64,000 nucleotides of DNA from Candidatus Omnitrophota bacterium (GCA_026387175.1 JAPLME010000012.1:139429-203428), one strand, 5' to 3'. Positions 1-35,151 are shown, counted from the first letter of the stretch. Numbers and translations are program-made. Notes: generated by a model not told the origin, from the letters alone.

Positions 1-1300
1 TTTCGGAAAAGGCCGCCGCGCAACTGAAGGCCGAAGCAGATACCATCATACTGAACCACGCAAAAGGTTTGTTGGCGGAATGGTTTGAAGTAAATCCCAC
101 AGCCACCTTAGATGAAATAAACGCCAAGGCGGATGAAATCATCGGTGAGTTTAGGCTTTCAGAAAATAAAAAAAGCATAGACGATTTTAAAACCAAGATT
201 GCCGCAGCCGTATTGAATCACGCCAGAACAATATTGGCTAAATGGATTAAAGAAAATCCCGCGGCTAACATAGCGGATATAAATAAAAAAGTAAGAGAAA
301 TTATCGACGATTATAAAATTTCGGGAAGAGAGAAAGACGTCGTACATTTTAGGGCCGAAGCTTCCAGGATAATATTGAGCCGGGCGGGAGAACTATTTAT
401 GAATTGGTTCAAAGCTAATCCCGCAGCCACCATAGATGAAATAAACGCTATGGTAAATGAAACTATTAAAACGTTCAAATTTCCGCAGGAGGATGTCTCT
501 TTGGGAAAAGGGCCCACGCAGCCAAAAGCCACAGCTATCGAAGCCGTATTAAATAACGCAAAAAAATTATTAATGAAGTGGTTCAGGGTAAAACGCAAAG
601 TCACCATAGCTGAAATAAACGCCATGGTAAATAAAATTATCGGTGAAGGCATGCTTTCGAAAGAAGACACGGTACAATTCAGGACTGGGTCCATTATGGA
701 CTGCGCAAAAGAATTATTTAAGAAATGGCTTAAAGAAAGCCCCGCAGCCGCTATAGTTGAGATAAACGCTGAGATAGATAAAATTATTGATAATTATAAA
801 TTTTCGAAAGAAGCCTCTATAAAATTTAAAGCCGAAGCTTCCAAAATTATATTAAGCCATGCGGAAGAACTATTGATGAATTGGTTCAAGGCTAATCCCG
901 CAGTCGCTATAGATGAGATAAACGCAATGTTAGAGGGTAGCATAGAGAGGTTCGGCTTCTCGGGAAAAACCGCAAGCCGCTTTAAAGCTGAATCCTTCAT
1001 AAGCTGCGCAAAAGAATTGTTAACGAAATGGCTTGAAGAAAATCCCAATGTTGCCATAAAAGAGATAAAAGCCGAGAAAAATAAAATTATCGGCAACCTT
1101 AAATTGTCGGAAGAAGCTGCCAAGCAATTTAGAGCCGAAGCTTCTAAAATTATATCAAATCACGCGGAAAAGTTATTAATGAGTTGGGTCAGGGCTAATC
1201 CCACAGTTGCTAAAGATGAAGCACACGCCAAGGTAATGGAAATTACCGGAAGACTGGGCATTTCTCCAAAGGAAGCCAGACGATTAACGGTCAAAATAAT
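1..1300 (+). repeat. Imperfect in-frame tandem coding repeats (~150-175 nt, at least 8 copies, continuing upstream of the window).
   Basis: Repeated nt blocks such as aattggttcaaagctaatcccgcagccaccatagatgaaataaacgc (around 409, 886 and diverged copies). Protein periodicity WFKANPAA.IDEINAM...FRAEAS.IIL.HAEELLM. Confidence 0.75.
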
Positions 1301-4300
1301 GAACGAGCTAAATGTTCAAAAGCAAAAAGGAGAAGCTCCTAAGACAGCGCCAATCGTGATGCACGCCGGCACTCCCGAAGGCCGATATGACGTAGCTACC
1401 GTGAAAGTCATTGATGGGAAGCTACAGGATTACAAAGGCATAGATAATGGCATGCAGGAGGCCCTGACAACGCTATTGAAAAGAATCACGAATAAGGACA
1501 TTGAAGCGAAAGTCGCCGAGCTTCTTGGCGATGAAGCCGCAAGAAAAGGACTATTAGAAGGTAAGGCCATAAGAATAGTTCAGGATAATGACCGGCTAAT
1601 GCACTTTACGGAAGGTCCGGATGTCATAACTATAGATATAGATGCACTAAGATATAGCGAACTTCTATTCATGGAATTCATTCACGAATTATTGCACGCA
1701 AAACTTGCCGCGATTCCGACCAGAGCAGGACCTATCGAGGAAGAGATAACTGTTACTACGCTCGAAATCGAGCTCTTCCTGATATTCCCGCAAGATATTC
1801 AGACTAAAATCCTCGAGACCCTCAAAGCAGATAATGACTTAGATGACCAGCAATTCTATAAGATCCTGGAAAAAGCCCAAGTTCAGGGCGCTGCTGCCAT
1901 AACAGGCGATATACGAGGATACGTAATAGGCCTTACTGCGATCAATCAATCGATGACCGCCGAAGAGATATGGGCGGCGTTGTGCGCAATGGATGGTTCG
2001 GAGCTTCCGGAGCTTAAAAAGTTTTCAACAAGGCAGGGCCAGACCATATTTGATCATGTCTACGGTCTAGTCACATTTGAAGAGGAATTGAATATAGCTG
2101 TAAATATGGCTGATACTGTTCAGGGAGAAGCCAGGGCCATGGAAGCTGTAATTTCGAAAAAGGATGCCCGCACCGATGCAACAGGTAAGCCTTCGGTTGA
2201 GCGCTTGGATCCGGCTAAAGTAGACGCATTCATTAGATATTATAATAATATCGTCAAGGGCCCGGATGGCGCTAGAAAGCTCTTCCTGTTAAGACTCGCT
2301 ATCGCGCTTCATGATATAGGCAAGGTAGAGGGTAGAGGCGAAGACAGAGCCGCGCATTATAGGCATGCCGCACCAGTTATAGAAAAGCTCTATAAGGATG
2401 GGATTATTACAGATGAAGAAGCGCGTTTTGTTCTAGCGCTCATTTATCTGCACGATACTTTTAACACGCTGCACTTCGGCGAGGTGCTACCAGCTCATAT
2501 AAAAGAATATCTCCAAGGGCCCAACGTCAACGTCTCTGAAGCGAAGTATTATGAGCTAGCACCGCTCCTTTATATATTCGATGTCGGCTCAGTCGAGAAA
2601 GGCTTGATATCGGATAGCCATCTCGCTAATGCGGTCTATCTCTCCAGCCCTGCCAATATAGCGAATCTTATGGATAATTGGGACGCTATACGTTTTTACG
2701 AAGGTTTCTGCGGAGAGGGAAATAAAGTCATAGATTTCTCCGCGCCTCGTGGCTCAACTATGTCGTTTAATCTGGATCCGGCGCTTAATTCACTTAGCTC
2801 GGTAGATAAAGCGCGTCTAAGCAGATTTTTAAGAGAGAAGGTGGCGTTTACCGGCCAGGCCATATTCATTTTCAGGTACATGAACGAATTGGCTAAGAAC
2901 GATCCTGATAAGCCGGGTGCGCTTGTGAAATTCTTACTTTTAATGGAGCGGGTATTGGCGGCCAACCCGAGTATAAATATTATACACTTTACACCGACCG
3001 GAGATCGGACTACAAAAGAATTTGCGGAACTATTATATAACCATGTAAAGAGCATGACACCGGCCCTTGCGGCGCCGGATCAGCTTACGCAAAATATCGC
3101 GGCACAGCTCGATCTGCCGATCACAGTAGAAGACGGAATGCTCGTCATAAATACTCAGTTAGCAATGGCTGCTAAGGCGGCTGCAATTGAAGCTCTTCCC
3201 CAGGCGATGTCGGTGGTAGAGGAGGAGAAACCGCTGGAAATCACGGATATAGGGACGACCGGCACTCATAACGATAAATATAGGGATCGGCATACTAAGA
3301 GTAGGATACTGGTCGATATTACTAACGGAAGATATATAAGGGTGACCTATAATAATGGAGAGCTGCAGATAGCGGGTGTCGATATAGGAAAGAATGCCTC
3401 TCCGATAGATCATGTCCTGCAAGACCGGCTCAGCGAGCTTAATAAGAGCAAAACATTCAAAGATTTCCTGGGCGCCAATAAAGATTTACTCGGAAACCTC
3501 TCTTTCTACCTGCTTGAGGCCGATGCCGCCGCAAAATATTCTAAATACCCGCATATCCTGACGGTTATCGGTGATCAGTATGATTTCGCATGGTCCGGAA
3601 CCCACGATGGCAGCGAACAGGCGGTTTATATAACAAGGGCATTCTTCACCGATATCGATATGAAGCTCATTATTGATGTCCTGAAGAATCAGATACTGCT
3701 GGCGAGTGTGCGATATGATGCATGGCAGAAGAGCAGGAAGCTGCCGTTCGGCGATATAAATTCGAAAAAAGTCCATGAGATCATGGCTCGCCTTCGCGAA
3801 ACATCAATAGTAAAGAAGGACCTGAAGGCCATCTATAGATATGATGTAGAAATAAGCAGGGTGTATTTTATAAATATACATACTTGCAACGAGATTATTA
3901 AACTTATGAAGAAGGTAAGAGACAGTATGCCGGCCTTCGCGCCCGCGGCCATGAACTACGAGACCGCGGCTAAATTCAAAGAGGCCATCATTAAGCATGA
4001 TTTCGACAGTGCTATACACGAATGGGGTATTCTGACCTATGACCTCAGAGAACTTGCTTTAAATAGCGATCAAATGTCGAAGGAGTTACTGGAAAAGAAG
4101 GAAGTAAAGCTTTTCCTTGCGCTGGCGGGAGGCATAAACAGCATCTTCAATAAGTATATGCTTAACCAGGGCATATCCAATCAAGAGGGCCTGGAAACAG
4201 GCAAGGTTGTCGGCAGGGTCAGGGTGGTGGCCGATATAGATAAAATAGAGAAAGAGTTCAAGAATGCCAAGGGCGACGAGATATGGGTTATACCGTATTT

Positions 4301-7300
4301 GCCTTTCCGCTCCGATATACCCGGCGTGGGCTGTATCATAAGCATCGCCGGAAACAGGCATGCTATCGATAGCGCCAAAGTCCAGGGCATACCTCTTGCG
4401 GTCGTTCCTAATGCAGTTGAGCTCTTGCGTGATTTTGAGCTTTCGACAGGCATGCTGCGTGTCGATTCTGACGGAGGCGCCCACTTCAGGAAAGCATTCC
4501 AAGGAGAAACAGGCGAGCCTGCGGTCAAGGAGAAGGTGCATATAACCGTTCCAAAAGCCAAAGTGGGAAAGAAGCTTATCTATAGACTTGATGAAGTGGA
4601 TCGTAACTTTGTCAGCTATGTGGGCTCTAAAACGGCTAACCTTGGAGAGATGATAAGCAATGGCGTGAATATACCGGAGGGTATCGCGCCCACAGTCGCT
4701 TTCTGGGACAAATTCAGTAAATATAACGGGCTCGATGAAAAGATAACCGCCCTGAGGCAGAAAATAGAGGTAAAGTCAGGAAAGATTGTAACGCCGCCTG
4801 ATAAAGTAAGAGAGACGTTGGCGGAAATAAAGAAAGTTATAATGAACGGTTCATTCCCCAAAGAGATCGAAGAAGTATTATTTACCGAAATAAATAAGAT
4901 GCGCGATAAATATGGCAGAGTAAGTTTCTATGTTCGTTCTTCGTTCAATTTCGAAGATCTGCCGGAGAATTCTATGGCGGGTCATTATGATTCTTATCCG
5001 TCAGATGAACAGATGGATACTAACTCGGATGAGGGCATACTTCGAGCGATTAAGTTAGTCTTTGCCTCGAAATGGAATGAGATAGCGTTTAATACGCGTG
5101 CATCGAACCGTGTTGACGATGGGGATGTTGAGCCTGCCCTTATTATTCAGGTGCCGGTGAAGGCGAAATATGCGGGTATCATGTATACTGCCGATCCCGT
5201 ATCTTCTAATTTTAACAAGATATCGATTATGGCAAGCCATGGACAGGGCGCCAGCGTGGTCGATAAGAAGGGAAGGCCAGCCGAGGTCAGCGTAGACAAA
5301 ACACTTACGGTAGATCAGGGCACATGGGTTGTTCAGGAGACATCACGCGTTCCCAGGGCGTACCGTTTTAAAGACGGCATTATCGAAGATACATATGTGA
5401 CCGCGGAAGAGCAGCGAGAGCATATACTTACCCCAAAACTTATTTCGATCCTGAAGAAAGCGAGTGAGCAGATAGAGGAGCTCTACGGTTTCTGGCCGCA
5501 GGATATAGAGTGGGTGCTTGACCAATCCGGCTGTTTATGGATAGTCCAGTCCAGGCCTATGCGTACGAATGTTTTACCTGCGGATAACATGATCAAAAAC
5601 GGTATGGACGCCAAAGTATATCAGGTGAATGAAGATGCCCTTATAGGCTTAAAAGAGTCGCTTCGTGAACCTGCGAACCCTGCCACCGCAGAGAAATTGA
5701 TAAATGCTCTCCACCTGGATATACCTACAAGAGAACTTATAAGTAAAATGCCGGTAAAGTACGGAGAGAGGATCGTTTCCGCGCGATATCTCGAGTTTAT
5801 GGCAGGTAACCACAAATTCGCGAATACCTTTACGCCCGAAATGATCAACGCGATTATAAAAAATATATCCGAAGATAGAAAGGCCATAATAGTCGATGCC
5901 GGGGCCATGCCTCAAATACTTGCCGCGCTAAGGAAGATAGCGCTTAATAGCGATAATACCGAAGTGAAAGAAGCGATAAAGGAATTCTTTATTAAGTATC
6001 TAGGAACGATGAATACCATAGCGGTGTCTCATACAATAAATATAGAAATAGCGAAAGCTCTTGTCGAATATCGGGAGTATGATCTGGCGCTAGCTAAGTT
6101 AAGGTCAGCGGAAAACTGTGAAGGGCAGCCGGATGTCGCCGATCTTACCATAAGAGTCCTGGCGGATATACCGACCAAAGAGTCCATAGAAAGGCTCGAA
6201 GGGTTCTTGTCAATCAATGGCGCTAACAGCTGGGTGGCAGAGTATGCCCGGAGAGTAATAAACAGATTGAAGATTTCTATAAGTGAGGCAGAAAGCACCG
6301 CCGCTCGAAAAGCGGCTGCAAGTGCGGCTTATGATGCCGCACTTGAGCAGAGAATGCTTCTTCTTCCGCCTGCGCCGGTTGCACTGCAGCTTCCCGCTCC
6401 GGAATTTATCATCGCCTTGCCGAAAGTAAATGAGGCGACTGATGCTAAAAATATGCAGATTATCAAAGATACTATTGAAGGAGCTCCGGCGCTTAAAGGA
6501 ATCGCGAAGATAGAGTTCGTCCCGAATGTTGATGCGTTTAACTCACGTATTGTGGGTGGCAATGTTAATGGTATCTTCCTTGATCTGAGCATGCTCGAAA
6601 ATGGCACTCTAAAAGAGCTACAGAGCGTATTGAATGAAGTTACAATTAGCGCCTCAGCCATCTTTGTAAGCCCAAGGACCAGAGAAGAGCTTGAGCGCAT
6701 ATTGAAAGATATCGCCGCCACACTCGATGAGATAGCCAAATTTGATATTGATGAAGCTGCCCGAGCTCAGCGTGGGGCCGATTATAAAGATCAGTTGCAA
6801 CATAGGCTTGCAGGCCAAATTAAGTCGTTAGGGACAGCCCTGGCAGTCAGAAAAGAAGCCGTAGCTCCTGTTTATAATTCCGCGCCTTTCGTTGATAAAG
6901 CTACGCTCGCGAACAAGACTTATGCGCTGGCTACAACCGAGAAGGTGGCGCTCTCCAATATGTTCGCCGCCGGCAATATGCAGAAGGCCGGAGATATGGG
7001 TGTGATTAACTGCTTTGTCTACGGTGAGATATTAAAAACCGAAGGTGAGGCGCGAGCATTCTTAATGGCGTCAGGCTATGAAGGCGATATTAACAATGTC
7101 AAGTTCGTGGATAAGCGTGGTCTCTCATACGAAGGCGTGAGAACCGCTATTATGACTAAAACGGGTGTGGAGTCGGTGAATATGGGTATAGCATACGCTA
7201 AAGATGAGCTGGGTGCGGTGGCTGCAGTCAAAGGCGAGAAGCTCCTCGAGATGAAGGAGATAGACATGGGCGGCGTGAAGGTTGTTGCCTCCATCAACTA

Positions 7301-19002: not shown

Positions 19003-19028
19003 AGCCAGCAAATAGCCTGGCTTTTTTA
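19003..19028 (+). terminator. Rho-independent terminator.
   Basis: AGCCAG-caaatagc-CTGGCT followed by TTTTTT. Confidence 0.7.
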
Positions 19029-24200: not shown

Positions 24201-25068
24201 TCTGAACAGTAGAATGGCGCAGTTTATTAAGGCCGGGAATAACCTTATTAATTTGGCCAACACAAGAATGGCCTTGGAAGGCCGTCCCAGTATCGGTAAT
24301 CTCGATCAAAGAATGACTACGGCCGGAATAATACAGAAGGTTGAGTGGGCTATTGAAAGTTTGGATAAGGAAGGCATTGCGCCGGAAATTAAATCCGCCG
24401 TCGAATCACTGAAGAAAAATCTCACCCAATTCGAAGCAGATAGCACGGTCGGGTCACTGATCGTTCTAGCCAGAAGAGCAAAAAGAGAGGATCAGAAGCT
24501 TATAATAGGCCTTGAGACAGACTGGATACCCGGCATGAACATAAAGGACAGTTGTCAAAAACAGGCAATATTCGCGCTTATGAAAGAGATAGACTCTATA
24601 GGTGATGCGTTAAAGTCCATGAGACTCGATAACGTAGAGATCATCCGCGGGAGCGGCAAAGAGCTGGCCGACACATTGCTGGATAAGGCAGGGAAGACGC
24701 GCACCAATCTGCATAACGTAGTAGTCATGGCCTCCAGCGACACTATAAACTCCGAGAACTTCGCTAAATTAAGGAACGTTGACGATAACGACAGGCCGTT
24801 CTTAGCCGGTATTGACCCTAAAGATCTCATTAAGTTTTACTCCGAATATGGCGAAAGCACCAGCAATCAGCTCTATGTGAAACTGACGCAACTGCTTTAT
24901 ATGACGCTTGAACTTGCGTCGGGGAAAGAACCTATGTATACGCCAATAATCGATTCTTATGACAGGAAGATGAGAATTGTTATATTCATGCCAAGAGCAG
25001 AGGCAAAAGATTATGAGGCGCTTAAGAACACTTATGCAGCTGAAAAGACTGCATTAATGGCAGCCTAA
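21211..25068 (+). CDS. Large secreted multidomain protein (1285 aa). Its N-terminal leader domain and C-terminal 210-aa domain are homologous to those of the 3733-aa protein. It also has internal TM segments and HEAT repeats.
   Basis: RBS aaagga 8 nt upstream. N-terminus ...SLDISYAYPAEH... is ~55% identical to 7661-8000. C-terminus 24418-25068 is ~75% aa / ~80% nt identical to 18215-18862. HEAT-like VPDLIKNVLGS...IGPVTPEVIPAFVKALGDSDSGIRALAA (22925-23110). Confidence 0.8.
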   Translation: MNTIKNHRFFKIICFALVITFISLDISYAYPAEHTAQNSTLATPSVFQTQPITTHAEAFQRSMLADGNLLGTVCSIGKFLLEDGIKLRHLARVLGEELGDAAKYVDLSRVSVTIMYDGRLVKLDPSLSVDTPQSAVVLIPYNKDGKNGIIEIALKNNPFIDKLAGYQWVVSDKYVIKDLPADYKEPALRPAPEVKTEAPVQPTISGPIARVEAPTTEAEKSKGILTRVFSIRAITTFTLAIILLFTQTALAASGDSTNLFSSSNMFRLVTGIAVLITVYHFAKKRLMLAKAQAIINEIGTLVSMRTEFSKVYVVDNPGQALFSIGTKSGEMPDMWNSALFINASIIRQMRFIWLWDNHNDLIRQIMSVDLYQRAVSVNESESIDSSLKTQGYAGRDDPNAKNAYFSEINKRAYSKVGPRGVALEAWFYQIYSDPLYAIKHANRDWIASEVGIYLAKRYLWMNNRQIKEVIKEIFKINEYFFNPKKSKSITFKSINPFAAIFGIAALNSTFSVVKDFIFAITKDNVIDAAMIGTTLVLSISVWRSDFPVSWHLFWARFTKISNAHINALIKMDRMAVPDLIKNVLGSKNRGTRWLALYILGEIGPVTPEVIPAFVKALGDSDSGIRALAADLIIEADDIRLSFMRDYLKMVRYAKDEGDRYYEVLNREEINYIVECLNNNMAIKGQYISHVLSNGSLAKLIINMNAPVVPTAKGTEQKLGAAELKSKWSEKMKSADEIGIKVNIGQLDEITATKKEINGIEYFESNTHNMKVSGDNRWHREDAVVCSFDAAEFNFTKLYEDVKPRHLIDEIKLENDDWYIGMDYMPILKYHMIIAPKQARQQLATPKDMADMQQFLAQMGDEKATLLHNSLLAGAGINSLHYHLFFYDFPIFKEGFPIYRGTEKFNTKTFTGKNCAQEAGAYLEELQGANQPYNLVMRYEKIIIIPRPRDIEFGYGADALAGVVFYGNDRSLEAATWYKPELMQVSNAAQLFEIVESSLNSRMAQFIKAGNNLINLANTRMALEGRPSIGNLDQRMTTAGIIQKVEWAIESLDKEGIAPEIKSAVESLKKNLTQFEADSTVGSLIVLARRAKREDQKLIIGLETDWIPGMNIKDSCQKQAIFALMKEIDSIGDALKSMRLDNVEIIRGSGKELADTLLDKAGKTRTNLHNVVVMASSDTINSENFAKLRNVDDNDRPFLAGIDPKDLIKFYSEYGESTSNQLYVKLTQLLYMTLELASGKEPMYTPIIDSYDRKMRIVIFMPRAEAKDYEALKNTYAAEKTALMAA

Positions 25069-25200: not shown

Positions 25201-28200
25201 ATGAGATTCTGGAAGAAGACAATTTCGATTTTATTGATCCACGCATTTTTGTTATCGAGCCTGCCGGCGGGAGCATTGCAGCCGGCTTTCGCCGCTGCGC
25301 TCGATAATACCCCAACTGCAACTAAAGAAATAACCACCAATCCGGAAAATATAATAATATCCAGAGATTACGGCATTGTAAAATCCAAATTCACAGGCAA
25401 GAGCGATAAACTCATAATCCACATCCAGGACGCTCACTGTAACTATGAAGCCCAGTCCAATATAGCGAAAATTATAGAAAGTCTCGTTAAGAATGACTCC
25501 TTAAGTTTCGTATCCGTCGAAGGAGCCGACGGCCTTATAGACACCTCATGGTTTAAGGCATTCCCGGACGCCGAAGTGAGAAAGGAAGTCGCCAATTATT
25601 TCATGAAGAAGGGCGAGATCACCGGGCCAGAATTTCTTTCGATCACTACAGACTACCCGATAAAGCTTTTTGGCGCGGAGACGCGTGAATATTATATCCA
25701 GAACCTCAATGCTTTCACCGCTAGTTATCCTTCAAAAGAAGAGACTGAGAAATATCTAAACGGCATAAAAGCTGTCCTGAATAAGCTCCAGAGCTTTATC
25801 TACAATGACGATTTAAAGGCCATGGATGCCAAGTCACGGGAACATGAATCTAAGAAGATCCAATTCAATGAATATGTGCGTTTCCTGCAGTCTGAGGCCG
25901 AGAAGCATAAGATCAATTTAAGGCAGTATGAAAATCTTTTTAAACTGATCAATGTCCTTACATATGAGAAGAAGATAGATTTCAGCGTGACTGATAAAGA
26001 GAGAAGCGCCGTTATAGATGAATTTAGCAAAGTTCTGCCAAAAGACATTCTGACGGAGCTTGTCAATAAATCGATATCTTTCAAAGTCGGCAAGATAGCT
26101 TCATCGGAATATTATGAATATCTAAGAAACCTCGCCGCGAAGAACGGTATAGAGCTTTTGAAGAATTATCCCAACCTCAGCAACTACATAATATATAACT
26201 CAGTATATTCGAAGATCGACAATGAGAAACTCTTCAATGATATAAAGGAAGTCGAGAGCGTGATAAAGGAGAAATTATTCGAAAATGAAGACCAGAGGAC
26301 CCTCGAGAAACTCTCACGTCACATAGACACTCTCCTCGGCCTCATTAATATAAAACTTCTTAACGGAGAATTTGACTACTATAAGACACATAAGGAAGAG
26401 TTTACGCCTGAAAGCTTTACGGATTTCATGAAGGCTAAGTCTATACAATTCGGCTTGGCTTATGAGACGGAACCTCCAGCCGCCACGGTCGCGGACAGCA
26501 TAACGAAGCTTGAGGATTTCTACGCTATTGCCATAAAGCGCGATAAGGCGCTTGTGGATAACACTCTGGAAGGGATGAAGAAGGCCGACCAGAAGATAGC
26601 TGTCCTCGTTACAGGCGGATTCCATTCCGAAGGCATGGCTAAGCTTCTGGAGAAACAGGGCATCTCTTACGTGGTCGTTTGCCCGAACATAACAAAGGAT
26701 GTTCCCACTCCATATATTCAGATTCTTACCAATCAACGAACCTCTTTTGAAGATATACTGTCTACTCCGCAAGAGCCTGTGAAACAGAACATGCTTGCGC
26801 CTGCGCTCCTATCGTGGACGATGGGATTGAAGCCGGAGGAATTCAATAGGCTATTTAAAAACTTTGCCGGCCTGAAAGATAGGGTGGGGGATGTTCAAGA
26901 TGCGTGGGTAAAAGAACACTTATTGCTATGGCTTCACAAGGCACTTCAGTATATGGGCCAGCATCGTATGGCACATGATAAGAATGTGCTGAAAGATGCT
27001 TATAGGATGGCTATTGAGCGTACGGCTCAGGCTGCAGGGCGTAGTATTGCGGAAGCAAAGGATACGGCAGAAGCTATTATCTCTTCCGAGGTATTTATCG
27101 CGGCATTCGACGCGGCATATTCTACTCTGACTGTGCCTGCTGTAGTAGACATAGCGCATAAGGCTGCCGGTTCCGATACGTCTGAGGAAGGAGAGGATAT
27201 CCCTGAGGACGAGAATATTCGGGAAAAGACCCATGGCGCCACCCTTACTAATGCGGTAATTAACCGTTCCATGGAGGCCCCCGGGACGCAATTTCTGACG
27301 ATATTTGACGCCAATAATCCTTCAGCTATGTTAAATGCACAAAAGATCAATACCAAATTTGCCGACATAGTTTATGATCTCGAGTCCGTTATTAAGGGGC
27401 TCGAGGATTCCGATATCAAGAATATAGTGCGCACTATCGAAGAGATAGGGTTCAATACCACCGAATTTGAAAAAGCTTTCACTAAAGAAAACCTTTTGGG
27501 AGTCCTAAAGTCTGGATCGGGATTTAAAATAAATCTTGTCCAGCCCAAAGAGGAGATAACGGGCTTGAAAGTTCCGGGAATAGCTATGCTACGAATGGGC
27601 TCGAACTATGGGCATTACAGTGTGAATAATAATTCCATCTACTGCGCGTGGGGTGCGGTCAATGCGTTACTCGAAGAAAATACCGGGCTGTCACGGCGTC
27701 TGATAGTGGCGCTTGCTCTGCATGAGCTTACGGAATACGCGGTTCTAAAGAAGATGTTTCCCGGAAAATCTGTAGCCGATGACGTTAATAGCGCTGAACG
27801 GATAGTGCACGAAGCCGCTCAACGTCTTGAAAAACTCGTCGTCGGCCTTGGCAGTACGGACAAAGTAAGTAAACTTGATGATAAACTTGCCCAGATCACA
27901 ACCGAATATTATAATGAATTTTCCCAGAGGCTCCTTGATATAGTGGTTAAGAATGCTAAATTGAACTCTGCAGACAAAGGGTACCTGTGGAGTATGTGGA
28001 AACAGCATATCGTGCGTTATACTTCATCCGGCGGCAGGAAGCAACTAAGGATCATAACGGATCGAAAATTGCTTGATAGCCCGAAATTCGATCCGCTTGT
28101 AGATGGCAACTTCCTGCTTGCGTCGATGCTTTCTGACAAAGAGAGAGAGACGATCCTGGGCGCTTTCGAATATTCAGATCTTAAAAATGACGAAGCGAAC

Positions 28201-31200
28201 GCCGAAGCGGCAAGACAGGTGGTTGTAACCGCTAACTCAATGGACGGCGGCCTCGGTGAAAGTACTGGACGCATGAAGTTCCTTCAAATGATGGCTGTGG
28301 AAAACGGTCTGTCTCCGAAGGTAGAAATGGGTGCGAAAGGGACGGACTTTGGATATTTTATGACTTATAAAGGCCATAAAGTGTTTGTAAGTATAGCAGA
28401 GGCGAAGCTTCTACAGTTATATCTGGCCGCTACGGCAACAGATATTGCCGGTAATAAAAAATTCGGCGGCATAAATTTCCAGCCGCTTGTGAATAAGGAC
28501 TCAAAAAAATCGTATAAAAACCTATTAAATAAGGTTTGTATATTTGACAGTCTTGACCCTAATGTGGAGCTTAAGCGGAGCTACAAGGATCTGCTTGAGG
28601 CCGCCGGGGTGAAAGTGTTCGATGATATGCTCGAGCAGGCCGATCTTCCCTGGATAGACATGGCGACTCATAATATAACATTGGGCTTAGATGAAGAGAG
28701 GCGCCAACCGGGCGGACACGGCCAGTGGGGTTTTTACTTTCTGTACGACGCCTATTCCTCGAAACCTCCCGATGACGGGAAGACGCATGTCAGGGTTTTT
28801 TATAATGGAGATAACCTCAATAGCAGGATCAATGAAAATATTGCCGGGGCCATGGTGAGAAATAGGTGGCCGATCGTGAAACTGACGACTATAGCGACCG
28901 GAATAGATAAGAAGGGCGGCAAGGACGGCGTCAGAATAAAGAAGGTAGGAGACAAGACTGTCTACATACCTGACCAAATGGAAGAGGCGGAGGCCAAAAG
29001 AGCCGGCCAGCTCGAAGAGTTCTATGGTGCCGGACTGGAAGGTGGCCTCGGGGAAAATAATAAACAGCCTTTCAATACTAATATGTTCTACATGAACATT
29101 ACATTGATTCATAGCGTAATGCGGGAACTGATGGAACAGGGATTGATCTCGGAAGAAAAATTCTATGACATCATCTCGCCTATATTGATACCTAGGGAGA
29201 AAGAGGATCCGGTGACTAAAGCTAAAGGTGCGTATGCCCCTATTGATGGAGCGATAGGCGTCGCTATGCACCATTTTAATGAATTTTTCCTGTTGAATAC
29301 CGATCCAAAGGTAAAAGCAGTGCTTGATAAATACGGAATCAAAAGGATGCTCTATTTTGTTAATGTTCCGCGGACGGAGTTCTTTACACCGGTAAAAAAA
29401 TGCTATGATATGTGGCTTCAGGCCTATAGCGACTATTATACTAAGATCGATACCGGAAGCTGGTCGCTGAAAGATTCCGAAGGAGCTGTAACGCCACCTG
29501 GCTTTGTTCTTATAGAACCACCGTTTGAGGAAAAAGATACGAAGAGTTATTGGAATGAAATGCAGAATGTTATCGATTCGTTCGGGCATGCCAGCACCAT
29601 ACAATTGAAATCATTAACCATCGTAGGTAAAATAATTGCGAAAGACGCCAAATTCATCGGCACCGTAGTTATAGAAAACAAAAATTCTCAGATTGTAGAT
29701 CTAAATCAACTGAGGGCTACTAATCCAGAGCTTGAAGCGCTCTATAGTGGGGACAAAGCTATCCTTAAAGATGTGCGAATCGTTATAAATAAGGATCTTT
29801 CGGTGACCGTAGAACCCATTAGCAAAGATGCCCGAATCACTGTAAATGAAGATTTCTCAGTGACCATCGAACCCAGCAGCACGAATGGGGACGTCGGCGC
29901 GATACGCGGTAACGGCGAAGGTGTCTCGGCGGAAGAACATGGCACGAGGACTCTCGGAAATGCTAATTATGACAGAGTCAAGGCCGCCCAGGAATATAGC
30001 CTGAACGGAATAATTGCGCGAAGATTTGATTCCGATAATGGAAACGGCAGCGTTGTTTACACCCTTTCTACCGAAAGAGATTATCGTCCATTCATGGGGG
30101 ATAAGAAAGTAGCAGGAATAAATATCGCTGATTTTAATAAAGACGGCGAACAGGCCAAACTTGAGCTGATCAAGAGGAGCCTCGTCGGAGAAAATATCAC
30201 ATTTTATATTATCAAAGGCTTAAAGGATAAGCTATTACAAAGCGGCATAGTTCCGGATCTGATGTTCCATCCGGGCGTGACGAGACGCGCCATATATATG
30301 GATGAAGGCGATTTCAGGTATCTGCTCTCTTTGGAAAACGGCGTCGATATCATAGCAGAGGCTGTGAAGCACGAAAAGGCTCACATGAAAGATTCTTCAG
30401 CAACAGAAGCAGCGGTTGAGAAAATAGCCCCGATCTATAACGTGAGGTTGGCGTTTACTTTAAGGGATGTGGCCCAGAATAGGGCTAAGATGGAGATTGA
30501 AAACAGACAATTCGAAGTCGGTAAGGAGTATGAACCGGGCAAAGTTTATCAGAAGCCTCTTCCAAAGTTCGCGAAGTTTGGGACGAGCGGCGTCAGGTGG
30601 CTGACATGGGATATATTTGAACAATTCAGACAGGCCGCGGAAAAAGTTAAAGCAGGCAAGGCTGATATCACCGCGCAAGACAGAGAGTTTGCAAGGAAGT
30701 ACGATGTCCTTGTGTCGAACGGTTACACGCAGGCGGACTTTACTATGCCTAACATCGGACTCGTAACGAAATCGATAGCTCTTTACAATTTAAAGAAAGC
30801 TCAAGGATTGTATGAGACCGTTTCCGGGACGACCGATGATTTCAGGAAGAAACTCGAGGAGAAGGGCTTGCTCCTATTCTACGATAACCGCCCGGGGAAT
30901 TTTGAATATGTAAAAGAGATGGCGCGGATACTTGTCTCATACGGTATAAAGGTAACATTAAATAAATTCGAAAATAAATTTACTCCGGTACTCATAGCAT
31001 CCATGAGCTTACTCATAAAGAGAGAAGGGTATGCGGGCGGATTATATTTAACAGCCAGCCATAACGGCGATGAGTGGAACGGTATTAAATTTAACGCGGA
31101 AGACGGCGCGCCGTCAATGCCTAAAGTTACTGACGCTATAGGCGCGATACTTGCGGAGGAGATCGGCCGCGAAAAGCCGGGATACGATAGAGCCAAAAAA

Positions 31201-34200
31201 GATGTGGAAGGCCTTATGGCCGACGGCAAAATAGCGGCCATGGACGCCACGCGATATTATGTTGATGCCGTCCTGAACTATATGGGGCCGGAGAGAGTAG
31301 AGGCCGTAAAACAGGCGATCAGGGAGAAGAGAGTTACATTCATATACAGCGCGTTTTATGGAAGTTCCGGCCTTGCCATGAAGATGCTCTGTGAGCGTCT
31401 CGGAATGTCGGAAGAGACTATAGAAAAAAATATAATTGAGATCGAAAAACCAGGTGAGGGCGTTTACGTCGCAAGTTACGAACCTACGCTGGAGAAGCTC
31501 GAAGTTCTTAAAGCGAAAGTTGATAAAGTGGTAGCTGATATAAAGGATCAGGGTGGAACTCCGATAGTAATAGGAGGTTCAGCCGATAATGACGCTGACA
31601 GATTCCAGGTTAACGAGAATGGAGAAGAGTATATACCCGGGAGGCTTACGGCTATACTTGGTCACTACCTTGTTACTTCGAGAAACTTGCGCGGTAAAGA
31701 TGTGCTGTGGGGCAGAAGCTTCGTATCCAGTCACTACCCGGACGAAGTAGCGATGCTTTTCGGGCAGAAGACGCAAGTAGAGCCCACAGGATTCAAATTT
31801 TCCCCGTCCGTTTTGGCTAAAGGCGGCGTAATATTTTACGAAGAAAGCTATGGCCAGTCATTCTGGGACTGGACACTCGATAAGGACGGTGTCTTACCGG
31901 CAATATTAGCGCTTGAACTTGTAGCGACTACAGGCAAGAGCCTCGCGGAATATGAAAAAGGTATTAAGAATGAACTGAAGGCGGCAGGATTACTGTCAGA
32001 ATTTCATTTCGAACGGGATGACAAGCGTTTACCCGGAGATGTTAAAGACAATGCCGTAAAATTATTTAAAGAATTCTTTAACGGTATTGTGGTAAACCAG
32101 ACCACCTTCGCCGGAAAGAAGATAACCGAAAAATATGATTCTGCTAAATTCGGCGGGATGAAATTTGTTATGGAGGACGGCAGTTGGATCGCTCTGCGCT
32201 CATCCGGGACTGAGCCGGTCATACGTGTCTATATGGAAGCTAAGGATGCTGCGGCAGTCAACGTATTGCGTCAGGCGGCCCTTGTATTGATGGCGCTTAA
32301 TGCAGAGAGATCCAAAACAGAGACTGCAGGTGCTGTAGAGGGCGGAAAGAAACTGCACACGCCTCTCGACGCAAAAGGCGATAAGGCGCTCGCGGCCGGC
32401 TTCCTGAAAGCAGGATATAATAAGGAAGGCAAGACCGCCAACATCGGGTATGGTGTCGAAGAAGGGGCGGTAATCGATGGATCGTTCGCCACAGAGGGCG
32501 AAGGCATCCAGGGTTATTATGTCGATAAAGGAAAGCAATTTCTAGCTACCATTAAGGATATGAGAGATTTCTTTGCCAGACGCGCGCAAATATTAGGTAA
32601 GAATATAAAATATGTAATAAAACCGGGTATTGGCGGCCAGCACACGCCGTTCCAGGGTATCGCTGAAGTCTTTCAGGTGATCGATACGGAAACCGGAATG
32701 GTCGTAGGCGAATACGAGCTGGGTAAGAATTACGAAGAAGCGCTTGGTAAAGTGTTGGCAGGGCTTGGTGCCGACTGGGACCAGATTGCGGTGATCCCGA
32801 GCTCGAAATCAGGCTCCACCGATGAGACGATGATGATATTCAGCGAAATCTTCTACACGCTCCTTAAGAAGATAGCCGAGAAGCAGGGCCTTAACGGCGA
32901 ACAGTTCTCCGACACCTTCTTTAATACATTGCATGATATAAATTTCGAGAATGGCGTCGAACGGAAGGGCGCGGATCTCTTTAAGGGATTCAGTTTGACG
33001 CTCCTTACGAATAATCTGAAAGCCGTTCCGGGATTCAAGACAGACTATGAACAGGTGAGAAATGTGTTCCGTGTTGTATTGGGAAACATGTTCTTTGAGA
33101 CTACCGATAGGCCCTCACAGAGCCGTCTCGCGGCCTTTATTAAAAACTCGGGCCTCGATAAGGAGCTGGGTGAAAAATACGCGCCCGGATTCGGCGCGAT
33201 GTTCGACAATGTCGGCGGACGCTGGACAGCGGACCTTCATATGATGACCTTCCTGGCATATCATAATATGACCGATGAAGAGATAATGGCGTATTGGCAG
33301 AGCCGGTATAACGGCATAAATGAAGTCCGTAACGGTACGCATCTGGCTAATAGTCTCGCGAAGAAGATACTCGACGAAGGGATCACCGATATAGCTCTGG
33401 TCGTTCCGAACGAGCTATTCTGGTTCGGTAAGTCCATAGAGCAGAACTTTAACGAATCTATCTGGCAGGAAGGTTTCGCTAATCTGGTCGCCGTTAAAGC
33501 GAGTAATTGGGAATACCAAAAAGCTAACTATTCCGGTAAATCGAAACGGCTTGTCGTGGATATTACCGGAGCAGAACTCGATATGAAAGGCTGCGATCTC
33601 TTTAAAGTGCCCGCGCTTTATAGCGGTACAGCGGCAGCCAAGACAAAAGAAAATTTGGCTATAGAGCTCGGAAGGCTGTCTACAACATTCTATGGCACCA
33701 CATACACCGTCGGGACGAGGCTCATAGATAGAGCGTTGGCGCGCGAAGGATATACGTGGGCCGATGTCGATATCAATAATCTGAATAATCCGGCAACGAG
33801 GATCATACAGCGCAATCTCTATTTGCGGCAGCCGTATGTAGAACTCGGCAAAGGGCTATTAGAACAGAAGATGGGTCTTTTTCAAGAGGCAGGCCCTAAA
33901 GCTATACAGGCAGAAGTTGCTAACATACAGGATGACGCCAAGCGCGGCAAACTTATCTCTAATATTGAAGAGTTAGGGCTTCCTGATAATGTAACTGATA
34001 TGCGGACACTGGCCAAGACTATATTTAAGGCTGTCAAATTTGCCGAGAAGGAGAATCGTAAGTTCGTGCCGTTCATATATCTGGAAGGCGAGAAGTTCTA
34101 TGAATTACGGGAGGCTCTTGTAAAACTCGGCATCGAATGGGTTATGCAGGGTACCGGCGACCAGCATATCAGTTATCAGCAGGTCCTGGCGCAGCCGCAA

Positions 34201-35151
34201 AAGTATCTGCCGTTCATAATTTCATTCGTTCCTGAGAAGATGCTCCCGGGCAGGCCCGCGATCGGATTCGCCAAAGGCTACCTGAATAATGTAAGCTCGA
34301 ATATGGTGAGGGACCTTTTCGCGGAGGCATCCTATAGGGCATTGACAGAGCCGAGAACGGACGAGGCAGGACAAAGCGTCCAGGGCGCGATGGGCATCTT
34401 CCTTCGCTTACAGGATTCGCAAGAGAACAGGACTATGCTTAAAGAGTCGTTCAAAGAGGCGATCACAGGCCCGCGCGTAGTAGAAATGACGATAACACCT
34501 AGGGCAGCAGCGAATAAGCCGGAGGCCGCACGTGAGGAGTATATTTACGATACCTATGTTAAAAATGACGCGGCAGCGCTTCACCAGACTCTCGTCGGAC
34601 TTGGGGTCAATACTGAGTTGACGAAAAACAAACAGGTGCTGATACTCTACGATACGGCGATAGATCCGACGGTGGATACAACTCATGTAGCGCACGCGGG
34701 TGAGGTTGCCGTAAAAAAATACATGAATGAGGCGATAATAGAAGTTCGCGGCACAGGTAAGGCTCTTTACGAAGCGGCCAAAGCGCAAGCTGGAAATTTG
34801 AAAGGGCCATACGCGATTGTTACGATAGCCGGGGACGTGACTTTGAGGGAGATAGGCACGGAAGGCTTGAAGGACCTCGGCAAGGTAATCAATGTGCAGA
34901 ATCCTGATAACAGGTATATCCCGGTCATTGGATTGTATGATCTTGCGCTCAGGATCGCATATGATCTCGGTGATGAAAAGATACTCGAATGTTTAAACAG
35001 GATCGCTACAAAGGATCCTAATTTTACGCCGTTTACCTTAGAAGATCTAAGGAAAGGTATGATAACAATACTGCCGAAGATCAGGCCTGTCGATATGGCC
35101 GAGGCTGTTGAAGCCTATAAGGCTGCGCAGGCAGCTCTTAAGTCGCTGTAA
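25201..35151 (+). CDS. Giant secreted multidomain protein (3316 aa) embedding a UTP-glucose-1-P uridylyltransferase-like domain, an alpha-D-phosphohexomutase (PGM/PMM) domain and a phosphoglucose isomerase domain.
   Basis: RBS ggagga. Signal-like N-terminus MRFWKKTISILLIHAFLLSSLPAGALQPAFAAA. TANSMDGGLGESTGRMKF (28221-28280) UGPase-like. FGTSGVRW (30578), TASHNGDEWNGIKF (31051-31095) and RSSGTEPVIRVY (32197-32235) are PGM signatures. KPGIGGQ (32622) and SSKSGSTDET (32800-32830) are PGI signatures. Confidence 0.85.
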   Translation: MRFWKKTISILLIHAFLLSSLPAGALQPAFAAALDNTPTATKEITTNPENIIISRDYGIVKSKFTGKSDKLIIHIQDAHCNYEAQSNIAKIIESLVKNDSLSFVSVEGADGLIDTSWFKAFPDAEVRKEVANYFMKKGEITGPEFLSITTDYPIKLFGAETREYYIQNLNAFTASYPSKEETEKYLNGIKAVLNKLQSFIYNDDLKAMDAKSREHESKKIQFNEYVRFLQSEAEKHKINLRQYENLFKLINVLTYEKKIDFSVTDKERSAVIDEFSKVLPKDILTELVNKSISFKVGKIASSEYYEYLRNLAAKNGIELLKNYPNLSNYIIYNSVYSKIDNEKLFNDIKEVESVIKEKLFENEDQRTLEKLSRHIDTLLGLINIKLLNGEFDYYKTHKEEFTPESFTDFMKAKSIQFGLAYETEPPAATVADSITKLEDFYAIAIKRDKALVDNTLEGMKKADQKIAVLVTGGFHSEGMAKLLEKQGISYVVVCPNITKDVPTPYIQILTNQRTSFEDILSTPQEPVKQNMLAPALLSWTMGLKPEEFNRLFKNFAGLKDRVGDVQDAWVKEHLLLWLHKALQYMGQHRMAHDKNVLKDAYRMAIERTAQAAGRSIAEAKDTAEAIISSEVFIAAFDAAYSTLTVPAVVDIAHKAAGSDTSEEGEDIPEDENIREKTHGATLTNAVINRSMEAPGTQFLTIFDANNPSAMLNAQKINTKFADIVYDLESVIKGLEDSDIKNIVRTIEEIGFNTTEFEKAFTKENLLGVLKSGSGFKINLVQPKEEITGLKVPGIAMLRMGSNYGHYSVNNNSIYCAWGAVNALLEENTGLSRRLIVALALHELTEYAVLKKMFPGKSVADDVNSAERIVHEAAQRLEKLVVGLGSTDKVSKLDDKLAQITTEYYNEFSQRLLDIVVKNAKLNSADKGYLWSMWKQHIVRYTSSGGRKQLRIITDRKLLDSPKFDPLVDGNFLLASMLSDKERETILGAFEYSDLKNDEANAEAARQVVVTANSMDGGLGESTGRMKFLQMMAVENGLSPKVEMGAKGTDFGYFMTYKGHKVFVSIAEAKLLQLYLAATATDIAGNKKFGGINFQPLVNKDSKKSYKNLLNKVCIFDSLDPNVELKRSYKDLLEAAGVKVFDDMLEQADLPWIDMATHNITLGLDEERRQPGGHGQWGFYFLYDAYSSKPPDDGKTHVRVFYNGDNLNSRINENIAGAMVRNRWPIVKLTTIATGIDKKGGKDGVRIKKVGDKTVYIPDQMEEAEAKRAGQLEEFYGAGLEGGLGENNKQPFNTNMFYMNITLIHSVMRELMEQGLISEEKFYDIISPILIPREKEDPVTKAKGAYAPIDGAIGVAMHHFNEFFLLNTDPKVKAVLDKYGIKRMLYFVNVPRTEFFTPVKKCYDMWLQAYSDYYTKIDTGSWSLKDSEGAVTPPGFVLIEPPFEEKDTKSYWNEMQNVIDSFGHASTIQLKSLTIVGKIIAKDAKFIGTVVIENKNSQIVDLNQLRATNPELEALYSGDKAILKDVRIVINKDLSVTVEPISKDARITVNEDFSVTIEPSSTNGDVGAIRGNGEGVSAEEHGTRTLGNANYDRVKAAQEYSLNGIIARRFDSDNGNGSVVYTLSTERDYRPFMGDKKVAGINIADFNKDGEQAKLELIKRSLVGENITFYIIKGLKDKLLQSGIVPDLMFHPGVTRRAIYMDEGDFRYLLSLENGVDIIAEAVKHEKAHMKDSSATEAAVEKIAPIYNVRLAFTLRDVAQNRAKMEIENRQFEVGKEYEPGKVYQKPLPKFAKFGTSGVRWLTWDIFEQFRQAAEKVKAGKADITAQDREFARKYDVLVSNGYTQADFTMPNIGLVTKSIALYNLKKAQGLYETVSGTTDDFRKKLEEKGLLLFYDNRPGNFEYVKEMARILVSYGIKVTLNKFENKFTPVLIASMSLLIKREGYAGGLYLTASHNGDEWNGIKFNAEDGAPSMPKVTDAIGAILAEEIGREKPGYDRAKKDVEGLMADGKIAAMDATRYYVDAVLNYMGPERVEAVKQAIREKRVTFIYSAFYGSSGLAMKMLCERLGMSEETIEKNIIEIEKPGEGVYVASYEPTLEKLEVLKAKVDKVVADIKDQGGTPIVIGGSADNDADRFQVNENGEEYIPGRLTAILGHYLVTSRNLRGKDVLWGRSFVSSHYPDEVAMLFGQKTQVEPTGFKFSPSVLAKGGVIFYEESYGQSFWDWTLDKDGVLPAILALELVATTGKSLAEYEKGIKNELKAAGLLSEFHFERDDKRLPGDVKDNAVKLFKEFFNGIVVNQTTFAGKKITEKYDSAKFGGMKFVMEDGSWIALRSSGTEPVIRVYMEAKDAAAVNVLRQAALVLMALNAERSKTETAGAVEGGKKLHTPLDAKGDKALAAGFLKAGYNKEGKTANIGYGVEEGAVIDGSFATEGEGIQGYYVDKGKQFLATIKDMRDFFARRAQILGKNIKYVIKPGIGGQHTPFQGIAEVFQVIDTETGMVVGEYELGKNYEEALGKVLAGLGADWDQIAVIPSSKSGSTDETMMIFSEIFYTLLKKIAEKQGLNGEQFSDTFFNTLHDINFENGVERKGADLFKGFSLTLLTNNLKAVPGFKTDYEQVRNVFRVVLGNMFFETTDRPSQSRLAAFIKNSGLDKELGEKYAPGFGAMFDNVGGRWTADLHMMTFLAYHNMTDEEIMAYWQSRYNGINEVRNGTHLANSLAKKILDEGITDIALVVPNELFWFGKSIEQNFNESIWQEGFANLVAVKASNWEYQKANYSGKSKRLVVDITGAELDMKGCDLFKVPALYSGTAAAKTKENLAIELGRLSTTFYGTTYTVGTRLIDRALAREGYTWADVDINNLNNPATRIIQRNLYLRQPYVELGKGLLEQKMGLFQEAGPKAIQAEVANIQDDAKRGKLISNIEELGLPDNVTDMRTLAKTIFKAVKFAEKENRKFVPFIYLEGEKFYELREALVKLGIEWVMQGTGDQHISYQQVLAQPQKYLPFIISFVPEKMLPGRPAIGFAKGYLNNVSSNMVRDLFAEASYRALTEPRTDEAGQSVQGAMGIFLRLQDSQENRTMLKESFKEAITGPRVVEMTITPRAAANKPEAAREEYIYDTYVKNDAAALHQTLVGLGVNTELTKNKQVLILYDTAIDPTVDTTHVAHAGEVAVKKYMNEAIIEVRGTGKALYEAAKAQAGNLKGPYAIVTIAGDVTLREIGTEGLKDLGKVINVQNPDNRYIPVIGLYDLALRIAYDLGDEKILECLNRIATKDPNFTPFTLEDLRKGMITILPKIRPVDMAEAVEAYKAAQAALKSL

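Follow-up and report, generated by a model that had tools for sequence, protein, structure and literature searches.

Very long mosaic proteins have already been described in the Omnitrophota. The Archaeovorins of this phylum exceed 30,000 amino acids (aa), the type being a 39,678-aa protein of Velamenicoccus archaeovorus; they have many transmembrane (TM) helices and mostly a divergent SecA_DEAD domain. HEAT repeats, glycosyltransferases, Radical_SAM, PPDK_N and NUDIX domains are abundant in them, and now and then there are also PGM, PGI and further glycolytic domains, whose predicted extracellular location is doubted by the authors themselves (West-Roberts et al. 2023, bioRxiv 10.1101/2023.11.21.568195). 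A catalogue of 916 proteins of at least 10,000 aa, most of them unique in sequence (80% singletons), includes a Class 1 of 'multi-enzyme metabolic clusters', in which a 'Module 2' of sugar metabolism (PGM, radical SAM, ROK, starch synthase) is found together with HD domains; about 9-13% of the catalogued proteins have a signal peptide only, and four functional hypotheses stand (Nielsen & Lui 2026, bioRxiv 10.64898/2026.06.07.730766). Giant open reading frames (ORFs) have also been linked to host-dependent lifestyles (Seymour et al. 2023). Here we analyse an array of five long genes, p1 to p5, which lies at the start of a 64,000-nucleotide (nt) stretch of DNA from a Candidatus Omnitrophota bacterium (GCA_026387175.1 JAPLME010000012.1:139429-203428; the window), and whose products combine conserved ends with exchangeable, enzyme-containing centres.

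Since Radical_SAM, PPDK_N, PGM/PMM, HD and HEAT domains have been catalogued before in long proteins of this phylum, the kind of protein is known and the finding is less novel than it had seemed when the array was first noticed. What appears to be new are two uncharacterised end domains, a conserved putative cleavage site and C-terminal tip, a syntenic p1/p2-p4/p5 cluster, and a recent copy of a module between paralogues. The text of the Archaeovorin and long-protein studies, as far as it could be searched, makes no mention of conserved terminal domains.

The ORF calls bear out the five consecutive long ORFs on the + strand seen in the preliminary description, which had been made from the sequence of the window without database searches. 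They encode proteins of at least 2499 (p1, open at the 5' edge of the window), 3733, 707, 1285 and 3316 aa, and are separated by gaps of 15-209 nt. NCBI holds proteins with the exact sequences of p3 and p4, deposited as Candidatus Omnitrophica and encoded on a contig of 251 kb, and the guess of an episymbiotic or predatory lifestyle fits this organism, as its phylum has such members as well as giant mosaic proteins (West-Roberts et al. 2023; Seymour et al. 2023; Nielsen & Lui 2026).

Three independent Logan contigs, each from a different sequencing run, are 100% identical to the window over 13.5-18.1 kb within positions 16948-35068, which comprise the final ~1.9 kb of p2 together with p3, p4 and p5. 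The long ORFs of this span are therefore no assembly chimeras, a possibility that had been put forward for checking, while for p1 and the bulk of p2 the support consists of orthologues of similar size in other metagenome-assembled genomes (MAGs). A single broken giant gene was also ruled out, because every one of the ORFs starts with a separate signal peptide and closes with a separate conserved terminus, features that are also kept in other MAGs.

Conserved ends and exchangeable centres

Proteins of the p2/p4 type consist of a Sec-type signal, an N-domain of ~150 aa, a variable cargo and an alpha/beta C-domain of ~220 aa that ends the protein. In BLASTP alignments p2 and p4 share 70% identity at the C-terminus (p2 3518-3733 vs p4 1070-1285) and 34% at the N-terminus (p2 1-204 vs p4 1-243), and Pfam, searched down to E<=5, matches neither of these shared ends. 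Both had been recognised before, as a leader of ~110 aa and a C-domain of ~210 aa; both are real, but the N-terminal alignment puts the length of the leader at ~170-190 aa.

Fourteen close homologues of 730-2229 aa are alike at both ends and have unrelated centres. Their N-termini follow the consensus 'M.KIKKS.LFR.ISL.LI.TFISLDISYAYPPEHN..NSTLA.PS', and their C-termini the consensus '...R.hhhLPKAEP.DYE.LK..YAAEK.AL.AA'. When a profile of the C-terminal 225 aa was searched against 1.84 billion cluster representatives, 595 proteins were found at E<=1e-3, 185 of them at E<=1e-30. In all complete proteins among the best 150 matches the C-domain stands at the extreme C-terminus, and the N-leader is also present in 97 of 158 examined proteins, whose lengths run continuously from 729 to 5572 aa. 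A word-indexed protein search with the HExxH module described below gave nothing back, p1 and p2 included, and p2 was missing from the contig index; the longest ORFs are apparently under-represented in the collections, and the family counts are therefore lower bounds. The C-domain keeps 57-78% identity while the cargo is unrelated, which makes the C-terminus the most conserved part. The cargo of 24 members comprises 56 Pfam families. Among these, HEAT was found in 10, radical SAM in 4 and UDPGP in 2, and NDK, guanylate kinase, epimerase, mannitol dehydrogenase, Polysacc_synt_2, TPR and ILEI were single cases.

Structure models of p4 were obtained with AlphaFold2 (AF2; scores in Table 1). In the model of the C-terminal 310 aa, which is of very high confidence, long helices lead into a three-layer alpha/beta domain; next come a small sheet and a terminal helix, and this helix extends to the last residue. 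In the model of the N-terminal 200 aa, a disordered linker connects the signal helix to a three-helix unit, after which comes a six-stranded sheet. No close fold relative of either domain model was found in the PDB. Judged by these models, the N-domain and the C-domain are real folded units.

It had been pointed out that p1 to p4 all end in -AA (AIRTAA, MALAAA, VLWAA and TALMAA), and this was compared to a sorting or degradation tag. The endings are correct, but the pattern is [AS][AVL] and not the LAA of ssrA. Among 158 proteins of the C-domain family, 97 end in AA, 32 in SA, 7 in SV, 5 in SL and 3 in RA, and an [AS][AVL] ending is present in 26 of 33 large mosaic ORFs; by chance 3.7% would be expected, and of 97 unrelated ORFs about 4 have it. 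This ending is real and linked to the family. As the terminal helix of the AF2 model runs to the last residue, -AA is the tip of a conserved terminal helix. An ssrA-like degradation tag was ruled out by the distribution of endings and by the structure model. We speculate that the tip could be the ligand of a PDZ-type tail-specific protease or of another partner.

The other proteins of the array are related to this family to different degrees. The C-terminus of p1-type proteins is a distant homologue of the p2/p4 C-domain (hhalign probability 91.5%, E 8.6e-7, 160 columns), and the C-domain hidden Markov model (HMM) matches the final 43 aa of p1. In p5 a weak match is confined to the very end (Table 1). 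p3, in turn, has relatives (P0160 and P0161) with the same conserved N- and C-ends and a terminus of the form QVLW[AS]A. Its C-terminal region has no homology to the p2/p4 C-domain detectable in profile comparisons, and Pfam scans of the whole or chopped protein detected no enzyme domain in it. p3 thus belongs to a small HEAT family of its own, and is an insertion in the array here. The claim that p3 and p4 have HEAT repeats in common was not confirmed, since there is no BLAST similarity between them and the HEAT match of p4, with 23.1 bits, stays under the Pfam cut-off of 27.7.

An internal HExxH module common to p1 and p2, already noted before, was confirmed: p1 449-642 and p2 2935-3129 are 80.5% identical in aa sequence (BLASTP), and the underlying DNA (1345-1876 vs 16461-16992) is 87.4% identical over 532 nt. 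The module, a candidate zincin metallopeptidase by its HExxH motif, has no Pfam match even at E<=5. HELLH begins at aa 561 of p1, followed 17 residues downstream by EEE; both motifs at this spacing are kept in four of four module copies, the entire module being highly conserved, and 'LLFMEFIHELLHA' is kept in the p1-type orthologues of two other loci (L002 and L003; L numbers denote loci and P numbers proteins). In these orthologues, from two other MAGs, the module lies at different positions, aa 626-842 and aa 1757-1970. On account of these positions and of the near-identical p1 and p2 copies, it is most probably a mobile module which is native to p1-type proteins and has recently been copied into p2. 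A second match joins p5 908-1586 (window 27922-29958) to part of a p1-type protein (at L003 445-2574), with 39% identity over ~680 aa; modules are therefore shared across protein types and genomes.

A pattern scan of GTDB species genomes yielded 25 loci in 19 assemblies, nearly all labelled Omnitrophota, with at most 4 copies per genome. For several genomes bearing the family the deposited name is 'uncultured Planctomycetia', and for one it is Candidatus Makaraimicrobium thalassicum (L005, L010, L017, L018, L019, L024 and L022); the family may extend beyond the Omnitrophota, or the MAG labels may be imprecise. In eight loci (L002, L003, L005, L007, L010, L012, L016 and L023) a p2/p4-type gene has a p1-type gene upstream, a p5-type gene downstream, or both. 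Orthologues of p1 precede p2/p4-type genes in L002, L003 and L012, and orthologues of p5 follow them in L003, L005, L010, L013 and L016. The upstream ORFs are large and end in ...IRTAA, IRSAA, IRSA or VL[TV]KA, the downstream ones encode ~3000 aa and end in ...QSV or WSV, and in both the homology to p1 or p5 is concentrated at the ends. Thus p5 and its orthologues are 45-77% identical over the N-terminal 520-650 aa and 74% (L003) over the C-terminal 800 aa, vs about 30% in the centre; no Pfam match was found in p5 aa 1-650 at E<=5. The recurrence of the order in related MAGs, which the preliminary description had suggested looking for, shows what is by homology and gene order a conserved cluster: a p1-type gene, then one or more p2/p4-type genes, then a p5-type gene.

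The two ends of p2 have different nearest relatives, namely P0014 and P0012 for the N-domain and P0006 and P0007 for the C-domain, and the C-domain of P0012 is among those most distant from that of p2. This agrees with reassortment of the end domains, as far as can be judged from their similarity. The comparisons show a family that apparently gains its diversity in two ways: whole modules are copied and moved from one paralogue to another, and the end domains are reassorted. The view of a polymorphic family with fixed ends and a swappable centre has thus been upheld by the variety of cargo, the p1-p2 copy and the discordant ends of p2, and in this respect the p2/p4 family is a clean natural case of domain-cassette exchange between fixed end modules.

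Enzyme domains in the array

Pfam domains were counted at the curated cut-offs, and whole proteins as well as chopped segments were scanned. In p2, the B12-binding domain (aa 1666-1764) scores 31.4 bits, just below the cut-off of 32.1, while the Radical_SAM domain (aa 1877-2047) reaches 68.9 bits and shows the CxxxCxxC motif as CPMGCSFC at aa 1882. The B12-binding domain is N-terminal to the radical SAM core, which is the layout of class B radical SAM proteins, and NCBIfam families of B12-radical SAM methyltransferases match at the domain level only. The UDPGP domain of p2 finds AGX1, a eukaryote-type UDP-GlcNAc pyrophosphorylase, in the PDB (6e-32), and the PPDK_N domain of p1 finds the ATP-grasp domains of PEP synthase and rifampin phosphotransferase (5e-30). 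The NCBIfam matches of the latter span only the first ~335 of ~800 positions of the full-length models, and p1 carries PPDK_N without the phospho-histidine and substrate domains. In p5, PGM_PMM I, III and IV are above the Pfam cut-offs, and the alpha-D-phosphohexomutase loops TASHNG, DNDADR, YEESYG and RSSGTEP could be read directly. p4 gave no enzyme match in Pfam (chopped segments and precomputed) apart from a weak GDPGP1/ATP_transf-like one, whose ATP_transf/DUF4922 signal in chopped segments corresponds to a precomputed PF26217 GDPGP1_N match marked as weak.

Among the normally cytoplasmic enzyme domains originally proposed for the array, HD, radical SAM, PPDK_N, NTP-transferase (UDPGP) and PGM were recovered in this way, but PGI was not: PF00342 has no Pfam, PDB or NCBIfam match in p1-p5, whole or chopped, even at E<=5. 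The sole SIS-related signal consists of non-significant Foldseek matches of the C-domain model (E 0.03-0.1). SecA, C39 and S8 domains likewise have no Pfam match in p1-p5. The cargo of the window for which a substrate class can be identified (APH-type kinase, PGM, two UDPGP and the weak GDPGP1-like match) is predicted to serve sugar-phosphate and sugar-nucleotide chemistry; HD, B12-radical SAM and PPDK_N make up the further cargo.

The NCBIfam matches across the array are all partial and at the domain level, far below the equivalog cut-offs, and they therefore represent isolated domains and not complete canonical enzymes. Together with the bulk of each protein, which has no recognisable family, and with the incomplete PPDK_N arrangement of p1, this could mean that the enzyme-like domains are non-catalytic, either as ligand- or glycan-binding or structural coat modules, or as largely neutral 'domain junkyard' DNA. 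We consider this very improbable, since the catalytic signatures of p2 and p5 are intact (CPMGCSFC; TASHNG/DNDADR/EES/RSSGTEP; FHDFGK), with the radical SAM cysteines, the PGM phosphoserine and the metal and phosphate loops retained, and since long intact ORFs, identical in three assemblies, and synteny across MAGs argue for selection.

Predicted export and its interpretation

A signal- or anchor-like segment had been proposed at the N-terminus of each of the five proteins. The hydropathy scan agrees for p2-p5, each of which has a single N-terminal hydrophobic segment, while the N-terminus of p1 lies outside the window; beyond the N-termini, the only further clear hydrophobic stretch in p2-p5 is at about aa 224-252 of p4. 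In the p2/p4 family, 79 N-termini were compared, and 66 of them have an [SATVCP]-x-[ASGTC] site near residue 29. In these 66, position -2 is W or Y in 62, while Y occupies +1 in 50 and P occupies +2 in 57; the net charge of the n-region is +3, and the uncharged run is of 11-16 residues. Because the small residues at -3 and -1 are partly imposed by the search pattern, the aromatic residue, Y, P, charge and run length constitute the independent evidence. By this heuristic, the N-termini of the family are predicted to fit a signal for Sec and signal peptidase I, [SA]-[WY]-A/Y-P, with the slash marking the cleavage site. The proteins do not look like RTX-type substrates of type I secretion, which have a C-terminal secretion signal and Ca-binding GGxGxD repeats but lack an N-terminal signal peptide: HemolysinCabind and RTX have no Pfam match in p1-p5, and the N-terminal Sec-like signal is present, although a C-terminal signal of a non-RTX kind is conceivable. 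To call the proteins 'secreted', as was done at first, is right in that the sequence has a Sec-like signal, but overstated in that the prediction comes from the signal only.

In the reading that we favour, and to which we would give an even chance of being correct, the array encodes exported modular mosaic proteins whose common C-domain serves docking or assembly in the envelope or in a host-contact apparatus. The signal would be cleaved after the conserved [SA]-[WY]-A, and such cleavage would imply export across the inner membrane. The C-domain, perhaps together with the N-domain, would be the module by which all of these proteins dock, assemble or are handed over to a single partner in the envelope. 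The proteins would then belong to the cell-surface or host-contact apparatus of a nanobacterium living as an episymbiont or predator, as smaller, signal-peptide-only relatives of the Archaeovorin-type giants.

Several observations weigh against this proposal. Export of p2-p5 has been deduced from sequence rules alone, no twin-arginine (Tat) motif is present, and the 67 ORFs that flank the 25 loci include no recurrent secretion, pilus or other partner gene. Moreover, as has already been remarked in the literature, the radical SAM/B12, kinase, pyrophosphorylase and ATP-grasp cargo needs the cytoplasmic cofactors ATP, UTP, S-adenosylmethionine (SAM), Fe-S and B12. The loading of Fe-S or cobalamin also fits poorly with a chain that Sec exports unfolded.

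The same difficulties leave room for an alternative in which the proteins are inner-membrane-tethered cytoplasmic metabolons, with an uncleaved N-terminal anchor, HEAT scaffolds, and PGM, kinase, NDP-sugar pyrophosphorylase, HD and radical SAM domains that channel sugar-phosphate and sugar-nucleotide metabolism for glycogen or envelope glycan. The substrate-assignable part of the cargo belongs to this chemistry, keeps its catalytic motifs and depends throughout on cytoplasmic cofactors, and the most frequent neighbours of C-domain family genes are, besides housekeeping genes, those for glycogen/starch synthase (GT5 and GT1), which adjoin family members in 3 loci. As for other neighbours, among L001, L004, L017 and further loci, DNA polymerase I flanks C-domain family members in 2. 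West-Roberts et al. also concede that extracellular predictions for glycolytic domains may be wrong. The cofactor needs, the missing Tat motif and the glycogen/starch synthase neighbours keep this explanation alive, although we regard it as unlikely. The +3 n-region, acidic residues past the helix, the 11-16-residue run and the A-x-A-like site predict an N-in/C-out orientation and cleavage, cargo swaps between close orthologues are not expected of core pathways, and the conservation of both end domains would be left unexplained.

The conflict between signal peptide and cofactor need would be resolved if the proteins were effectors delivered into the cytoplasm of a host or prey, where they would redirect sugar-phosphate and nucleotide pools, with the N- and C-domains as delivery chassis. 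Host-interaction proteins typically change their cargo quickly and exchange modules, a single machine could well recognise the conserved ends, the Omnitrophota are inferred to be host-dependent, and the giant protein of V. archaeovorus is up-regulated in attached cells. Nevertheless, the loci have no linked translocation machinery, neither a signal nor a fold known from effector delivery was detected, 3000-5000 aa is unusually large for translocated effectors, and the idea is wholly inferential; we hold it to be quite improbable. About equally doubtful in our opinion is a bolder reading, in which the bracket of signal, N-domain and C-domain is a dedicated carrier chassis, so far unrecognised, that exports interchangeable enzymes of cytoplasmic type, such as sugar-nucleotide enzymes, kinases and radical SAM enzymes, to an envelope partner or to host cells, the [AS][AVL]-COOH tip taking part in recognition. 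If this were true, the family would be a modular 'metabolic effector' delivery family.

Export signals ahead of ATP-, UTP-, SAM- and Fe-S-dependent domains have been seen before in Omnitrophota, in proteins of 10-150 thousand aa (kaa) that are not realistically expressible or purifiable. The p2/p4 family presents the same paradox at a tractable size, with complete members from ~730 aa, and because of this small size, the modelled end domains and the sharp cleavage site, topology, processing, partner binding and activity are directly testable.

Neighbouring features and comparison with known systems

The coordinates of the array and of its surroundings are listed in Table 1. The N-terminal part of p1 has several degenerate direct repeats with apparently helical units of ~160 nt (53 aa) and 66-81% nt identity, and a short tandem repeat (29767-29875; period 57 nt, 1.9 copies, 76% matches) lies inside p5. 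Besides the terminator-like hairpin and T-run between p2 and p3, promoter-like hexamers are found at 18893-18949 and 25099-25127; these elements suggest that the array has more than one transcription unit, with the reservation that the overall counts in promoter and terminator scans of the window are not above those in shuffles.

Downstream of the array, on the same strand, window 35565-61863 resembles a locus for the use or sensing of beta-1,2-glucan, which fits the carbohydrate-import genes reported near Omnitrophota giant genes. It includes a 2050-aa protein (47652-53804) with ~12 hydrophobic segments in the first ~1000 aa and GH94 supersandwich and catalytic domains at aa 1302-2014; in this it is similar to cyclic beta-1,2-glucan synthases in their C-terminal half, and no glycosyltransferase domain was detected in its N-terminal 1300 aa.

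Table 1. Positions of the array proteins, their domains and neighbouring features in the window
Feature	Residues (aa)	Window position	Strand	Basis
p1, p1-type mosaic protein, 5'-truncated by window edge	at least 2499	3/69..7502	+	ORF open to base 3
Degenerate internal repeats in p1, helical units of ~53 aa		240..1245	+	self-blastn pairs, 66-81% identity
HExxH module, p1 copy	449-642	1347..1928	+	BLASTP and DNA identity to p2 copy
p1 PPDK_N-type ATP-grasp nucleotide-binding domain	1538-1856	4614..5570	+	Pfam 2.7e-56
p1 C-terminal domain, distant homologue of p2/p4 C-domain, ends ...YLPKALPIDYGREIETYRNAVNAIRTAA		6990..7499	+	hhalign, HMM
p2, p2/p4-type mosaic protein	3733	7661..18862	+	ORF call, Pfam, family alignment
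p2 signal peptide (~1-29, SYA/YP) and N-domain	1-166	7661..8158	+	N-domain HMM 7e-67
p2 APH-type phosphotransferase (kinase)	288-461	8522..9043	+	PF01636 9.8e-6, 25.9 bits vs cut-off 23.2
p2 second HD match	1048-1087	10802..10921	+	Pfam 6.3e-5, 23.7 bits vs cut-off 22
p2 HD domain, H...HD motif FHDFGK	1332-1426	11654..11938	+	Pfam 8.8e-11; motif read directly
p2 B12-binding and radical SAM	1666-2047	12656..13801	+	Pfam 1.8e-7 and 7.6e-19
p2 UDP-sugar pyrophosphorylase (UDPGP)	2219-2584	14315..15412	+	Pfam 1.2e-19
HExxH module, p2 copy	2935-3129	16463..17047	+	BLASTP and DNA identity to p1 copy
p2 conserved C-terminal domain	3516-3733	18206..18859	+	HMM 3e-126
Terminator-like hairpin then T-run, p2/p3 gap		19001..19024	+	consensus scan; total count not above shuffles
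p3, signal-bearing HEAT-repeat protein, ends VLWAA	707	19072..21195	+	Pfam HEAT_PBS 8e-21
p4, p2/p4-type mosaic protein	1285	21211..25068	+	NCBI: 'HEAT repeat domain-containing protein', Candidatus Omnitrophica
p4 signal peptide and N-domain	1-186	21211..21768	+	HMM 2.9e-66; AF2 of N-terminal 200 aa, pLDDT (predicted local distance difference test) 84.9
p4 weak GDPGP1/ATP_transf (HIT-type nucleotidyl-transferase) match	920-975	23968..24135	+	Pfam 6e-4, below cut-off
p4 conserved C-terminal domain	1061-1285	24391..25065	+	HMM 1.8e-124; AF2 of C-terminal 310 aa, pLDDT 94.2, pTM (predicted template modelling score) 0.90
p5, p5-type mosaic protein	3316	25201..35151	+	ORF call, Pfam
p5 signal peptide and conserved p5-type N-terminal region	1-650	25201..27150	+	45-77% identity to orthologues
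p5 second UDPGP (NTP-transferase)	1143-1443	28627..29529	+	Pfam 6.2e-8, 32.2 bits vs cut-off 22
p5 PGM/PMM domains I-IV	1876-2358	30826..32274	+	Pfam; PDB PGM 5e-24; motifs
p5 final 46 aa, weak match to C-domain end, ...ILPKIRPVDMAEAVEAYKAAQAALKSL		35011..35148	+	hhalign E 4.5e-4, probability 33%; HMM match
Three PF10091 'glycoamylase' (GH144-like) proteins		36242-37522, 43451-45742, 53814-55880	+	
Sugar-binding protein		39193-40512	+	
Response regulator and histidine kinase		40535-42682	+	
CBM11-like protein		42767-43378	+	
Two ABC permeases		55916-57809	+	
ROK protein		58580-59809	+	
M48 peptidase		59847-60842	+	

The Ala-rich AL-x-AA ends of family members are like the ssrA/ClpXP degron (YALAA-COOH). 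However, the residue at -3 is variable in the family (Q, S, A, M, H, T, E or V) with Leu at -4, and a third of the members end in SA, SV or SL; in addition, and unlike in ssrA substrates, the tip belongs to a structured helix of a folded domain, and the proteins are predicted to be exported. With the polymorphic toxins (Rhs, CDI, MafB), the array shares a conserved trafficking part combined with exchangeable cassettes, clustered paralogues and cassette copying. In contrast to these toxins, the proteins vary in the centre and are conserved at either end, the cargo consists of metabolic enzymes and HEAT repeats, and there are no small immunity genes, for which the gaps within the array are too short.

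The closest counterparts are found among the long proteins of the phylum itself. The array resembles the Class 1 multi-enzyme clusters in its sugar-metabolism content, HD domains, HEAT scaffolding and signal-peptide-only topology, but in comparison to the catalogue of Nielsen & Lui, with its lower limit of 10,000 aa and its predominance of singletons, the proteins are shorter, and a coherent family of ~600 representatives, the largest seen having 5572 aa, is united by its end domains. Like the Archaeovorins, the array comes from the Omnitrophota and encodes mosaics of HEAT repeats with Radical_SAM, PPDK_N and PGM/PMM domains that are divergent and predicted to lie outside the membrane, and it has carbohydrate-uptake genes nearby. 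Unlike the Archaeovorins, its proteins are 10-100 times shorter (0.7-3.7 kaa vs more than 30 kaa), they have a single N-terminal signal and neither a TM array nor SecA_DEAD, C39 or S8 domains, and their family is defined by the bracket of N-domain and C-domain.

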